Shown piece by piece: positions 13,003 through 36,146 of a stretch of DNA of 64,000 nucleotides. The notes beneath the pieces are model-generated. The model searched no databases. It saw only the letters and a list, made by a program, of their open reading frames with translations, and was not told the DNA's origin. The stretch comes from Promethearchaeia archaeon (GTDB lineage: Archaea; Asgardarchaeota; Lokiarchaeia; Sigyniarchaeales; SOKP01), in the NCBI GenBank assembly GCA_046483985.1, contig JAWOCD010000080.1, positions 28,096-92,095 of the forward strand, written 5' to 3'. The first letter of the stretch is position 1. Each line of letters starts with the position of its first letter. The translations under genes and the position numbers were made by a program.

Positions 13003-14406
13003 CTAAAATTGAGACTCATCAATATCCGGCATATCAGCATCGTTTAAAGCTTGCTTGATCGCCTCTTCAGAAAGCTCAAAATCCTCGAGATCTCCAGTCA
13101 TATATTCTTTATACGCTTGTAAATCAAAATGTCCGTGTCCGCTGAAATTAAAGACGATAACCTTTTTTTCATTGTTCTCTTTTGCCTTTTCGGCTTGAAC
13201 CATAGCTTCCTTTATAGCGTGGCAAGTTTCGGGGGCAGGAAGAATACCTTCTGCTCCAGCGAACGTTAATCCTGCTTCAATAATCTCCGTTTGGAAGTGT
13301 GTTGTGGCAGTAATTACATCATTATTATAAAGGTTAGATATAATAGGAGCAATTCCATGATATCTTAATCCTCCTGCATGGATTGGTGTCGGAATAAAAT
13401 TATGCCCTAAGGTATGCATCTTCAAGATTGGAGCTTGTTTTGCAGAGTCCCCATAGTCCCATCTATACTCTCCTTTACAGACACTAGGACATGCTTTAGG
13501 TTCCACACCGATAATTTCCACGTCGGGGAGATCTCCACGAATTTTATCTCTTGCAAAAGGAATCATGAATCCGCTAAAATTTGAACCTCCTCCCATACAC
13601 CCTATTAAGATATCCGGTTTCTCTATACCTGCTTTTTTCAGTTGTTTCTTTGTTTCTTGTCCAATCACTGTTTGATGTAAACAGACAAAATTAATCACGC
13701 TCCCTAAAGAATAACGTGCATTATCGCCCCTCAAACTATGTTCTACTGCTTCAGAGATCGCAATCCCTAAACTTCCCGGGTGATCGGGATCCTTTTCATA
13801 GTAACTCCTTCCAGATTCTGTAAACCGTGAAGGACTTGCATGAACTTCTCCGTTATAGGATCTCATTAAAATTTTTCTACCTGGCTTTTGTAAAAAGCTG
13901 GCTCGGACCATATAAACTGTACATTTAATATTAAATAAATTACAGCCAAATGAAAGAGCCGATCCCCATTGACCTGCACCAGTTTCAGTGACTAACTCGG
14001 TCATACCATCTTTTTTGGCATAATATGCTTGCGCTAAAGCTGTATTCGGTTTATGAGAGCCAGTTGGGGATAACGATTCATTTTTAAAATAAATCTGAAT
14101 ATCATCTCCCACGACATCTAAAACATTCTCTAATGCTAACGCTCGATGTAAGGGTGAAGGACGGTAAGTTCTCGCGTAAATTTCCCTTAGTTTCTTTGGA
14201 ATATCTATAAGCGGCTCTTGAGATACTTCTTGCATTACACAACTCTTTGGGAATATCTGAAAAGCCATTTCAGGTGGTGCAGGTTTCTCATCTTGTGGGT
14301 TAACTAAGGGCGTCATAGGTGTAGGTAAATCTGGTAAAATATTTACCCATTGCTTTGGAACCTCGCTTGGTTCAAGCAAGATTCTTCCATTAAAATTGTC
14401 AACCAT
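13003..14406 (-). CDS. trpB2: Tryptophan synthase beta chain type 2 (TrpB2)
   Basis: TGSHKPN (PLP lysine), TETGAGQWG, GGGSN, IHAGGLRYHG and SGHG motifs. Confidence 0.95.
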   Translation of the reverse strand: MVDNFNGRILLEPSEVPKQWVNILPDLPTPMTPLVNPQDEKPAPPEMAFQIFPKSCVMQEVSQEPLIDIPKKLREIYARTYRPSPLHRALALENVLDVVGDDIQIYFKNESLSPTGSHKPNTALAQAYYAKKDGMTELVTETGAGQWGSALSFGCNLFNIKCTVYMVRASFLQKPGRKILMRSYNGEVHASPSRFTESGRSYYEKDPDHPGSLGIAISEAVEHSLRGDNARYSLGSVINFVCLHQTVIGQETKKQLKKAGIEKPDILIGCMGGGSNFSGFMIPFARDKIRGDLPDVEIIGVEPKACPSVCKGEYRWDYGDSAKQAPILKMHTLGHNFIPTPIHAGGLRYHGIAPIISNLYNNDVITATTHFQTEIIEAGLTFAGAEGILPAPETCHAIKEAMVQAEKAKENNEKKVIVFNFSGHGHFDLQAYKEYMTGDLEDFELSEEAIKQALNDADMPDIDESQF

Positions 14407-14455
14407 TTTTAAGTAACCATTTTTTAAGTTTTGTTAAGTTTTTTAGTACACGATT

Positions 14456-14530
14456 CGTTATATTATTGGAATTCAATAATATTAACGCACATTAAAAACC
14501 ATCTTTTTATCATAGAGATTATAAAAAGAT
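14456..14530. promoter_or_regulatory. Two inverted repeats in the trpB2 leader
   Basis: atctttttat-N10-ataaaaagat (14501-14530, perfect) and cgttatattattg-N5-caataatattaacg (14456-14487, one bulge). Confidence 0.55.
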
Positions 14531-14564
14531 AAAAGAAGTAAATCAATCAGGTTTAGTCCAATGC

Positions 14565-14588
14565 AAAAAGGCGTCTATTACCAACGCC
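14565..14588 (-). terminator. Hairpin plus U-tract overlapping the end of the leader ORF
   Basis: GGCGU(U)-GGUAAUA-(G)ACGCC followed by UUUUU on the minus strand. Confidence 0.5.
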
Positions 14589-14631
14589 AAGGCCACTGCC
14601 AGCGCCAAAAATCTAATTTTACAGGTGCCAT
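14578..14631 (-). CDS. Putative Trp-rich leader peptide of trpB2 (MAPVKLDFWRWQWPWRW)
   Basis: ATG at 14631; 5 TGG among the last 9 sense codons; tandem TAA TAG stops; same strand and about 170 nt upstream of trpB2. Confidence 0.8.
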   Translation of the reverse strand: MAPVKLDFWRWQWPWRW

Positions 14632-14717
14632 ATGCTTTCTAAACCATTATTTAAAATATATATATTATTATTGTCCAAATTATAAAAAGTTAATGGAATA
14701 AAAAATCCGAAGTCTGT

Positions 14718-15125
14718 TCATTCTCTCCCTTCAAAAATTTTTTCAATGCGATTTGCAGCTACCCTTGATACCTTTACAGTTTTCATTAGGGTATCAATTG
14801 TTGTACCCGCACAAACTATAACCAAACGCTGTGCATTTGTGATAACTATATATCCATCTTCCGCGCGCACGATGATTTCAGCCAAATCTTCTTGAAACAA
14901 GGTTTTTATGGTAGATTTCCCACTAAGTACTAAACTAGCTGCTAACCCACAAAATGCATCACTCTCTACATCGTAATTGGGTAATGCACTAAATGCTATT
15001 TGGTACCCTTCAGACGAGACTAAGGCAATTGCTTCAATTTCAGTATTTGAAGTAATAAAGCTAATTTGCGGGCTTATCTTCTCAATATCATCTTCTGTGA
15101 TACCTAAATCGGAACCAAACTCCAT
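14718..15125 (-). CDS. Roadblock/LC7 domain protein
   Basis: IEAIALVSSEG...AASL...EIIVRAEDGYIVI pattern. Confidence 0.85.
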   Translation of the reverse strand: MEFGSDLGITEDDIEKISPQISFITSNTEIEAIALVSSEGYQIAFSALPNYDVESDAFCGLAASLVLSGKSTIKTLFQEDLAEIIVRAEDGYIVITNAQRLVIVCAGTTIDTLMKTVKVSRVAANRIEKIFEGRE

Positions 15126-15295: not shown

Positions 15296-15718
15296 TTATT
15301 CCATCTTAGCTAAAATTTTGCCCATTCTGGTCATTATCCCCTGCATTGCCTGAGCCAACCCTTTCATTCCGTTCTCCTGTCTTTGTGCATAATCCCTAAG
15401 AGAATCTAAAATAGGACGTAATTGCATGACATTATTTGACATATTCTGAATGTCATTTTTCATTGTTTCAATATCTGAACCCACCTTTTTTACGACTTCC
15501 AATGAGTTACTTAATTCATTTAAATTCTCAGATAATTTTTCTGAAACATCTGACATCCCCTTGATCGTTTCAACACTATTTGATAATTCTTCTACTTGAG
15601 GACCTAATTCAGGTAAAGATTTCTTTAGTTTTTCCACTGTACTAATCAGATAACGTCGTCCACTCATGACCTCTTGTAGAGATTCTTGTATTTCTTTAAA
15701 AATGCCTTTTTCTCCCAT
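15296..15718 (-). CDS. Coiled-coil protein (GRRY-motif paralog)
   Basis: Continuous heptads; N-terminal EVMSGRRYLI. Confidence 0.7.
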   Translation of the reverse strand: MGEKGIFKEIQESLQEVMSGRRYLISTVEKLKKSLPELGPQVEELSNSVETIKGMSDVSEKLSENLNELSNSLEVVKKVGSDIETMKNDIQNMSNNVMQLRPILDSLRDYAQRQENGMKGLAQAMQGIMTRMGKILAKME

Positions 15719-15732
15719 TTATATTTGCCTCT

Positions 15733-16458
15733 TTATTGATTTTTCCATTTATTGATTTTTGATTTTAAAGTTTCCATATTCTTCTCATTTATCTCAACAT
15801 CGCCCAGTGCCTTTAATCTGCCAGATTCCATACTTAATTCGAATAATTTAGGATCCAACGGATTTTCTTTGGATAATTTTGTTCTCAAATCATCAATCTT
15901 ATTTCCAATTTCCACCGCTGTACTTCCCGCTTCTGCTGCATCCAGTATAGTATCAAATTCGGTCCCCCCGCCAGAGGCGGAGCCCGATGGTGAACTGGAT
16001 GGACTTGGACTTGGCTCTGACGGTGCGGGAGATGGAGCCGATGATTGTGATGTTGATGAACTGGAGGGCGTTGGTTGCGACTTAGTGGAAGATTGTGGTT
16101 GTGGCGTGGGCGCAGTACTGGGTGCCGTAGTGGATTTTGCACTTGTAGAAACACCGCCTTCTTTTAAAGCATTTACTGCGTTTAAAGTTGTATTTGTAGT
16201 GCTATTGAGCGAATTTACGCTGGTACTCAGATTATTAACGCTGTTTTTTAAGTTTTTCATGGAGTTAATTGCCTCTTGCATAAAGGACTTCATTTCATTA
16301 ACTGCCCCAGTAATTTCGCTTAATGAATCGCCAACTGATGTATCTTGTATATCACTTACGGTTTCTTTTAATTTACCGATCTCCGCGATAATATATCTTC
16401 GTCCTAATATTACTTCATCTAATTTCTCCATTAACTGATCAAAAACTGTTTTGGACAT
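15733..16458 (-). CDS. Coiled-coil protein with S/P/T-rich linker and C-terminal helical domain (GRRY-motif paralog)
   Basis: N-terminal EVILGRRYII, heptads and a disordered linker. Confidence 0.7.
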   Translation of the reverse strand: MSKTVFDQLMEKLDEVILGRRYIIAEIGKLKETVSDIQDTSVGDSLSEITGAVNEMKSFMQEAINSMKNLKNSVNNLSTSVNSLNSTTNTTLNAVNALKEGGVSTSAKSTTAPSTAPTPQPQSSTKSQPTPSSSSTSQSSAPSPAPSEPSPSPSSSPSGSASGGGTEFDTILDAAEAGSTAVEIGNKIDDLRTKLSKENPLDPKLFELSMESGRLKALGDVEINEKNMETLKSKINKWKNQ

Positions 16459-35552: not shown

Positions 35553-36146
35553 TCATTCTTTTTCTTTTTCCAATAATAATTTTATAAAATCGGGTAAAGT
35601 CAGTAAATAACTTTGAGCATTAGGTAATTGATTTTTTATCTTTATGAATAATTGAGAATAATGATGGGCCTTTTCCTTTTGTTCTAAAACATCATTTCTT
35701 TTTTGTTCCCTAATTCTTTCAACGGGAATTCCCTTCATTACGGCTCTTGTGGGTATAACTAATCCAGGAGGGACTTGGCTTTTCTCAAGAATAACAACCC
35801 CTTCACCTATTGAAGTTTCCTCAAAGATCAAAGATCCTTCTAATATTTGCACATAGTCTTCTAAAAATGAACCCAAGATTGTAACTCCTGTTTCAATAAT
35901 GCAATATCTTCCAATGTTTATTGGACTCTTTTTTGATTTAGTAAATAAAATTACTCCATTAAAAATTGTTGAATATTCTCCAATATTTATAGTTGAATTT
36001 TCTGCTCTTAAAATTGAACCCGGCCATACTATTGCGTTATCATTCACTGTAACATCTCCAATTAATGTTGCCATTGGACTAACATATGCATTTTCGCTGA
36101 TTTTTGGTTCTTTTCCATTATATTCTAATAATACCATTTTTATCAA
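35553..36146 (-). CDS. Gamma-carbonic-anhydrase-like left-handed beta-helix protein lacking Zn-binding His residues
   Basis: Hexapeptide repeats, IGDV, LRAE, GIP; no His at the metal-ligand positions. Confidence 0.8.
   Translation of the reverse strand: MIKMVLLEYNGKEPKISENAYVSPMATLIGDVTVNDNAIVWPGSILRAENSTINIGEYSTIFNGVILFTKSKKSPINIGRYCIIETGVTILGSFLEDYVQILEGSLIFEETSIGEGVVILEKSQVPPGLVIPTRAVMKGIPVERIREQKRNDVLEQKEKAHHYSQLFIKIKNQLPNAQSYLLTLPDFIKLLLEKEKE

Follow-up and report, generated by a model that had tools for sequence, protein, structure and literature searches.

A candidate ribosome-sensed tryptophan attenuator upstream of trpB2 in Asgard archaea

Background

Leader-peptide attenuation is the textbook form of regulation that depends on translation closely trailing transcription, and to our knowledge it has so far been established only in bacteria. 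In the trp leader of Escherichia coli and Salmonella (trpL, RF00513), a short ORF directly before the trp genes, and on their strand, carries two tandem Trp codons towards its end, these codons and the stop codon fall within an RNA hairpin of the 1:2, 2:3 and 3:4 set of pairings, a U-rich tract follows downstream, and the speed of the ribosome reports on charged tRNA-Trp. Attenuation by TRAP in Bacillus subtilis likewise uses a trp leader RNA, here with 9–11 (G/U)AG trinucleotides placed 2–3 nt apart, and needs mtrB. Control of trp genes in an archaeon is exemplified by TrpY of Methanothermobacter, a DNA-binding repressor which acts at the TRP boxes of promoters and involves no translated leader. 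The mycobacterial poly-Cys attenuators, or 'Cys ribulon' (bioRxiv 10.1101/834739), consist of unannotated cognate-codon ORFs before several loci of one pathway, with a shared ribosome-borne response in which the stalled ribosome blocks RNA structure; these ORFs are leaderless and free a downstream ribosome-binding site. A 2025 review found evidence for archaeal transcription-translation coupling to be scarce, and a full-text literature search, covering searchable texts, returned no report of a leader-peptide attenuator or Trp leader peptide in archaea.

Here we describe the region upstream of trpB2 in a 64,000-nt stretch of DNA from an Asgard archaeon (the window). As in trpL, a trp gene is preceded on its own strand by a short ORF with Trp codons in its last part, these codons and the stop codon are predicted to lie within an RNA hairpin with a U-rich tract downstream, and the speed of the ribosome would report on charged tRNA-Trp. 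Unlike trpL, the Asgard leader is archaeal, has no RF00513 match, and contains three to six Trp codons which alternate with other codons. In place of the trpL set of pairings it has a predicted long-range helix around the whole ORF, with no separate antiterminator identified, while its U-tract lies 30–50 nt after the stop codon, where it would serve an archaeal RNA polymerase with aCPSF1/FttA (for which a hairpin is generally unneeded), and about 100 nt of further conserved elements follow before the gene. The arrangement of unannotated cognate-codon ORFs before more than one locus of a pathway, with a common ribosome-borne response and a stalled ribosome that would block RNA structure, is shared with the mycobacterial poly-Cys ORFs, whereas the predicted 5' UTR of approximately 20–28 nt and a U-tract that points to termination set the Asgard leaders apart from them. 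Regular trinucleotide repeats in a trp leader RNA also recall TRAP, but the Asgard repeats are three to six UGG triplets with an exact 6-nt period inside an ORF. The likeness to TrpY is that of trp control in an archaeon, and a conserved palindrome downstream of the leader (Box2, see below) might be an operator of a broadly similar type. On these comparisons the putative Asgard element is one of bacterial trpL logic with a different architecture, consisting of alternating Trp codons, an ORF-enclosing helix and a distal U-tract.

Results

A Trp-rich leader ORF upstream of trpB2

The trpB2 gene (13003..14406, minus strand) encodes a TrpB-like PLP enzyme of 467 aa, which was identified by matches to NCBIfam NF009057 (643 bits, cut-off 366), TIGR01415 (597 bits, cut-off 519) and Pfam PALP, and is the presumed controlled gene. 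The closest TrpB2 loci in public genomes were from Promethearchaeota archaeon entries, which upholds the Asgard assignment. A GGTAA Shine-Dalgarno sequence precedes trpB2, and a gene for a roadblock/LC7 protein lies upstream of the leader on the same strand. A few metatranscriptome contigs of 150 nt mapped to the coding part of trpB2 and the 34 nt upstream of it (to 14440), short of the leader.

An earlier note, based on the sequence alone, had described a Trp-rich leader peptide with five alternating Trp codons on the trpB2 strand, ending about 170 nt before trpB2 in a GC-rich island of an AT-rich spacer. The minus-strand reading from 14631 to 14575 matches this exactly: ATG GCA CCT GTA AAA TTA GAT TTT TGG CGC TGG CAG TGG CCT TGG CGT TGG TAA TAG. 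The leader ORF MAPVKLDFWRWQWPWRW (14578..14631, minus strand) has 17 codons from the ATG at 14631-14629 to the TAA at 14580-78, with a second stop codon, TAG, at 14577-75. Its five Trp codons, the proposed sensor (codons 9, 11, 13, 15 and 17; 14581..14607, minus strand), are at 14607-05, 14601-599, 14595-93, 14589-87 and 14583-81. The distance between the leader stop codon and the trpB2 ATG was measured as 171 nt, and the G+C content of the island is 42-45%, compared with 15-25% in its surroundings.

Both strands of the genome (4.06 Mb, 35% G+C, 97%-complete) were scanned for alternating in-frame TGG runs, which gave one five-fold run, the leader at trpB2, and three four-fold runs. Base composition predicts only approximately 0.001 five-fold runs, whereas one such run was seen, and one of the four-fold runs precedes the trp operon; chance is thereby excluded as the origin of the W run. 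The latter four-fold run belongs to a 23-codon ORF (MNGKGKYTRFLPITWFWAWRWRA) upstream of a complete trpDCFBAEG operon on another contig; it is located 427 nt from trpD and has no U5 tract within 50 nt. These two, before trpB2 and before trpDCFBAEG, are the only strongly W-rich short intergenic ORFs in the genome. A weak W-containing ORF on contig C74 was dismissed as a leader, as it resembles the end of the upstream gene. By the criteria used, the same scan of short intergenic ORFs in this genome detected no comparable leader rich in the codons of a different amino acid (His, Cys, Met and others).

Conservation of the leader and evidence of translation

Two sets of genomes were searched for comparable leaders. 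In the first, for which 700 nt of sequence before trpB2 were taken from each of 30 related genomes (24 of the same family), an ORF of the form M-x(6-9)-WxWxW(xW)-stop was present in 17/24 same-family genomes, ending 136-183 nt upstream of trpB2, and in the second, drawn from public genomes, a W-leader was found at 41/51 further Promethearchaeota (Loki-type Asgard MAG) trpB2 loci, although these counts overstate independence because the compared genomes are related. The leaders of the second set end 133-175 nt before trpB2, all but two of them at 146-175 nt. Examples from relatives are MATVKNNFWCWQWPWRWQ, MSTLLINSWRWQWQWR and MKLLILNGWHWHWRC, and weaker forms (WAW) occur in other families of the order. 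A W-leader is missing at trpB2 in two genera, and four of their five genomes have one before trpD. The WxWxW-stop leader was absent from all 28 non-Asgard trpB2 loci examined. As a separate observation, a bacterial-style WWW leader was seen at one non-Asgard trpB2 locus, that of a Caldithrix.

Two alignments, one of 19 and one of 48 leaders, show invariant TGG codons, whereas the intervening residues vary (R, Q, P, A, H, C and others) and the N-terminal part of the peptide is variable as well. W-rich upstream ORFs with varying non-Trp residues, which the earlier note had proposed to look for at trpB2 orthologs, are thus found before both trpB2 and trpD across Promethearchaeota.

An open in-frame ATG lies at most 54 nt upstream of the W run in 56/59 distinct leaders, compared with 2/118 for the other two frames, and the resulting peptide is 15–18 aa long in 53/59. 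Exceptions at the start codon are a GTG in leader L004 and probably a TTG in L021/L022. Among the synonymous and conservative codon changes are CCT/CCG/CCA/CCC for Pro and, where Lys or Arg is encoded, AAA/AGA/AGG/CGA. Little synonymous change is seen in the codons that separate the TGGs (CAG, CCT, CGT), which is explained by nucleotide-level constraint imposed by the predicted helices H1 and P2. A programmed frameshift at hungry UGG codons was considered and rejected, as reading on from the W run in the +1 or −1 frame leads to ends at varying positions, with no long frame conserved. Taken together, the conserved start codon, frame and length lead us to conclude that the leader frame is likely to be read by the ribosome.

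The constraint on the codons between the TGGs, and the presence of regularly spaced trinucleotide repeats in a structured leader before trp genes, would also be expected if the UGG repeats were a platform for a TRAP-like protein or, as in a T-box, for tRNA-Trp, with the reading frame being incidental. Such a platform would, however, leave the conserved in-frame ATG, the stop codon right after the run and the exact 6-nt in-frame period without explanation. In addition, the TRAP gene (PF02081) was not found in the 97%-complete genome in a search which detected the Bacillus control, and an Rfam cmscan of 14300-14760 with E-values up to 10 gave only chance-level matches to unrelated families, with no RF00513, T-box or other pertinent match. 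We therefore consider a binding platform very improbable, and a Trp-codon sensor that acts in cis likely from the same comparisons.

Predicted RNA fold of the leader

When 23 leaders were folded one by one, a common layout recurred, in which a hairpin over the last codons and the stop codon (H1) is followed by a conserved motif (J) and the 3' strand of a long-range helix (P1). H1 (14570..14588, minus strand) has at least four pairs across the stop codon in 56/59 leaders, and occurs in two registers, GGCGTTG/TAACGCC (type A) and GTTGGC/GCCAAC (type B). Its pairing is conserved with compensatory changes: the H1 cells are paired in 95–96% of cases, versus 14–59% when the partner is slid, and changes on both sides convert GGCGTT/AACGCC to GGTCTT/AAGACC and also to GGTGTT/AACACT. 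For type A, none of 500 shuffles matched either the observed cells or the covariation score.

In the window, H1 includes GGCGT (14588-84) and ACGCC (14574-70) followed by T5 (14569-65), which was flagged by a terminator-like scan; the sigma-70 promoter part of that scan is inapplicable to an archaeon, and only the terminator-like match was used. The hairpin and U5 at the stop codon which the earlier note had reported are present, but this is not a conserved terminator, since relatives carry only U2–4 at this place.

Motif J (TTGCATTGGA; 14557..14566, minus strand) lies between H1 and the 3' strand of P1, and is nearly invariant in two leader alignments (A1 and A2). In the second register of H1 it reads TGCAATGGA, with a bulged base that varies. 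J is able to pair with the W run, at CAGTG or CCTTG, thereby lengthening H1, and a compensatory case is L087, where the W run has CCC and J has CAGTGG. The CAT of J can also pair with the start codon, and L004 combines its GTG start codon with CAC in J. For the start region ATGGCAACTG, the possible partners are CAGTGGCC of the W run and J. Folding predicts only moderate pairing of the start codon (mean probability 0.55), and suggests a tendency for this codon to be sequestered in the completed leader.

P1 consists of a 5' strand GGTTTAG (14639..14645, minus strand) in the predicted 5' UTR and a complementary 3' strand CTAAACC directly after J (14550..14556, minus strand), and thus joins the 5' UTR, or codons 4–7 in some lineages, to the stretch immediately following J. 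As the helix strands are out of register across lineages, duplex tests of cognate versus non-cognate partners and anchored sub-alignments were used. Cognate partners gave −12.96 kcal/mol versus −9.34 kcal/mol for non-cognate partners, and none of 20000 permutations reached the cognate value. The lineage variants GATTTAG/CTAAATC, ATATGATTT/AAATCATAT, TTAAGGAA/TTCCTTAA and CGACCGAAT/ATTCGGTCG are all complementary. RNAalifold on a plain MAFFT alignment returned only four pairs.

The pairings predicted to compete with one another are those of the start region with the W run, the W run with J, and J with the start codon. Among the leaders compared, no dedicated antiterminator helix with covariation was found. 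An antiterminator of the 2:3 type, with the 3' arm of H1 pairing with the 5' flank of Box2, suited some sequences by eye and was rejected as it fails in type B. The complementarity between J and the Box2 loop (ATTGGA/TCCAAT) involves two conserved sequences, shows no covariation, and J is kept where Box2 is absent.

Mutually exclusive pairings around J could also relay a signal to a different output of the same sensor, whereby a stalled ribosome remodels the leader and alters trpB2 translation initiation or mRNA stability, with no premature termination. This has a precedent in the uncovering of a hidden downstream ribosome-binding site by a ribosome stalled in a cognate-codon short ORF (bioRxiv 10.1101/834739), and the spacer at trpB2 contains additional conserved hairpin-like elements (H2, Box2 and H3) next to the Shine-Dalgarno sequence. 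When the pairing was assessed, however, leader segments paired with their own trpB2 ribosome-binding site no better than with the sites of other genomes, and a small complementarity signal for the whole leader disappeared once its parts were tested separately. The leader is also approximately 170 nt away from the start codon, and the start region of the ORF is predicted to be paired in the completed leader in about half of the leaders, which is more in line with one decision made during transcription than with continuous sensing by a mature mRNA. We consider such a translational or stability output unlikely, and return to it with the U-tracts below.

Promoter-like box, U-tracts and downstream elements

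A BRE/TATA-like box, ttaACTTTTTATAAT (14679..14693, minus strand), is a candidate promoter of the leader. It belongs to a recurring motif, ttaACTTTTTAWA / atagATTTTTATTTA, located approximately 47–62 nt before the leader ATG in 58 leaders. With the usual archaeal spacing between TATA box and start, transcription would begin about 20–28 nt before the ATG, which predicts a leader 5' UTR of this length that holds the 5' strand of P1.

On the other side of the fold are U-tracts (14523..14534, minus strand), consisting of T4 at 14531-14534 and T5 at 14523-14527, with the extra T5 at 14565-14569 right after H1. In 50 trpB2 leaders there were 46 runs of at least five T starting 30–49 nt after the stop codon and a single A run of that length, the 30–39 nt bin after the stop codon is 61% T, and the longest T run is at least five in 47/52 leaders, so that the tract is strand-specific and has the form U5–8. 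U-tracts of 4–7 nt are an archaeal terminator signal which is bound by aCPSF1, including the Lokiarchaeal orthologue, and for archaeal terminators a hairpin is generally reported to be unnecessary (PMC8716108). The T4 and T5 tracts here both fall within this range of 4–7 U on the transcript strand. A positioned and strand-specific U-tract would be without a role if the stalled ribosome acted on trpB2 translation or mRNA stability, whereas termination at the U-tract is a plausible, though tentative, output of the attenuator.

The U-tract is also able to pair with a downstream A-tract in hairpin H2 (ATCTTTTTAT ... ATAAAAAGAT; 14501..14530, minus strand), and relatives have, by eye, an inverted repeat of other sequence at this place (TTTTAATATTTT / AAAATATTAAAA). 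A small hairpin, CACAT..ATGTG, is found between leader and trpB2 in relatives. Further downstream is Box2, a conserved imperfect palindrome (GTGCGTTAAT..TTGAATTCCAA..TAACGAATCGTG; 14449..14490, minus strand) which is located 48–76 nt (mostly 57–70 nt) before the trpB2 ATG, and in four genomes is also found before trpD or before a small ORF preceding trpD. The sense and antisense strands of Box2 fold equally well, and it may thus act as a hairpin in the RNA or as an operator in the DNA. No further copies were found in this genome, where Box2 is single-copy. A TATA-like sequence, CTCTTTTTAAATG, often precedes Box2. As TATA-like sequences and Box2 are situated between the leader and trpB2, the gene may have its own promoter or operator, which Box2 might mark.

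This arrangement bears on whether the leader and trpB2 are part of one transcript. The leader could be a separate small transcription unit for a W-rich peptide or small RNA, with trpB2 transcribed from its own promoter under a DNA-binding factor at Box2, and the link between the two being indirect, via promoter interference or a trans-acting RNA or peptide. The leader does have a TATA-like box and a terminator-like U-tract of its own, Box2 is at a fixed distance from the trpB2 start without strand bias and is retained in some genomes which have no leader, and action in trans is reported for RNAs and peptides of bacterial trp attenuators (PMC7298713, PMC7968998). A product acting in trans would, however, need neither a copy at each trp locus nor the same strand and the tight spacing of approximately 146–175 nt, and several trpD leaders lack Box2. 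Moreover, at the relic loci L006/L093 the ORF has been deleted, but directly before trpB2 the leader TATA box is still present together with the 3' half of the fold, which fits a leader promoter serving trpB2. A separate transcription unit is therefore quite improbable in our view, and a cis-acting, ribosome-sensed tryptophan attenuator before trpB2 is, on the comparisons made here, reasonably probable.

Discussion

The earlier note had interpreted the element as a ribosome-sensed Trp attenuator, of which the sensing via Trp codons is well supported by sequence comparison, with a conserved ORF, fold, U-tract and link to trp genes. In the mechanism that we propose, transcription would start from the promoter approximately 50 nt upstream, and the first frame to be transcribed would be the 17-codon leader with its five alternating Trp codons. 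The second half of this frame, including the stop codon, would form the 5' side of a GC-rich hairpin made up of H1 and an outer stem with J, with P1 closing the fold. On the 3' side, the stop codon and the U-tract would be connected without interruption by the 3' arm of H1, followed by J and then by the 3' strand of P1.

With abundant charged tRNA-Trp, the first ribosome would complete the leader and depart, allowing the fold to form, and transcription would then end at the U-tract or U-tracts, intrinsically or with the help of aCPSF1/FttA. Under Trp shortage, a ribosome stalled on a UGG codon would occupy the 5' arm, the fold would not form, and the polymerase would continue into trpB2; the stalled ribosome may also keep the termination factor away. 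An alternative with the same logic, and equally open, is that a retained ribosome keeps FttA from Spt5, and that release at the stop codon lets FttA act. With a second copy of the device before trpDCFBAEG, both tryptophan routes would be under a single signal. We infer that leader and trpB2 are co-transcribed, that the response has this direction, and that termination is the regulated step.

Ribosome masks were applied in equilibrium folding: masks on the late W codons abolished H1 and left P1 in place, and a mask at the stop codon also blocked H1. As P1 would outlast a ribosome stalled on the W run, and H1 would also be blocked by one at the stop codon, the switch would depend on kinetics and timing. 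A purely structural switch is weakened by these results, as it is by the general dispensability of hairpins for archaeal terminators, and the trpD leader of this genome, with its lack of a nearby U5 tract and its distance from trpD, counts against the attenuator reading.

Conclusions

More tentatively still than for termination as such, the comparisons suggest that Promethearchaeota may have an attenuator of their own design, possibly independent of the bacterial attenuators, in which a pioneer ribosome translating a WxWxW mini-gene controls whether the polymerase stops at a U-tract, either by blocking a terminator-assisting fold or by keeping aCPSF1/FttA off Spt5. If true, it would be the first archaeal case of regulation through coupled transcription and translation, and in the lineage closest to eukaryotes. 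It would offer a natural and genetically simple read-out of coupling, present before both Asgard tryptophan loci, and would reveal an interplay of the ribosome with the eukaryote-like archaeal termination machinery (U-tract, aCPSF1/FttA and Spt4/5). The leaders also flag a class of unannotated mini-genes that is missed by gene callers, and may provide a portable Trp-responsive switch for archaeal genetics. For the largely uncultured Asgard organisms themselves, they indicate how the supply of tryptophan and indole may be sensed.

Leader ORFs and associated elements upstream of trpD and trpB2

The genome carrying the trpB2 leader contains a second W-rich leader ORF, MNGKGKYTRFLPITWFWAWRWRA, located on the plus strand of contig C69 (about 35913-35984; L031:2414-2485), 427 nt upstream of trpD in an operon with the gene order trpD-C-F-B-A-E-G. 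This ORF is followed by GCATCGG, which resembles J (the conserved motif between the stop-codon hairpin H1 and the 3' strand of the long-range helix P1), while no U5 tract is found within 50 nt after it. In several genomes, a small plus-strand ORF of 62-80 aa (L031:2715-2903; L039:2049-2291) separates trpD from the leader or from Box2, and the trp operon may begin with this ORF; it matched no Pfam family, and similarity among its copies is limited to a short I(F/Y)xQxMxLxN stretch.

Box2 itself is a conserved imperfect palindrome (GTGCRTTAAT..TTGAWTTCCAA..ATTAAYGAnACAC; window 14449-14490, minus strand), which in most Promethearchaeota lies 48-76 nt, mostly 57-70 nt, upstream of the trpB2 start. 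It is present once in the genome studied here and also occurs upstream of trpD in four genomes, and may either form a hairpin in the RNA or serve as the operator for a Trp-responsive factor.

In L006 and L093, which belong to one lineage, the leader ORF is deleted, with the TATA box, the H1 3' arm, the CATTGG motif and the P1 3' strand kept about 190-130 nt before trpB2, and in the L035 trpD leader, MIRKNLIVPSSTWFCICCWHA, three TGG codons have become TGT; all three leaders are decayed. In a variant form found about 230-150 nt before trpB2 in L018, L066, L077, L083 and L084 (e.g. MFAKINLLKCWRGLWRFKTLFQW), the stop codon following the W run is lost, and the frame runs through the hairpin as far as the conserved CAATGG motif, where TGG-TAA closes it.

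Bacteria too have Trp leaders before trpB2, as a Caldithrix MAG (L115) contains the classical-looking leader ORF MATFTHKTFSWWWCLRWRWVNNAFQ 87 nt before its trpB2, although it differs in form from the Promethearchaeota leader.

Genomic context of trpB2

Upstream of trpB2 lies a roadblock/LC7-domain gene (window 14718-15125), a neighbour conserved in many relatives, which is preceded by two genes encoding coiled-coil proteins (15296-15718 and 15733-16458), all on the minus strand. Searches with TrpB2 as query did not find a TrpB1-type copy in many genomes of the same family (G001, G002, G006, G007, G012-G014, G018-G021 and G024), and thus trpB2 may be their sole tryptophan-synthesis gene.
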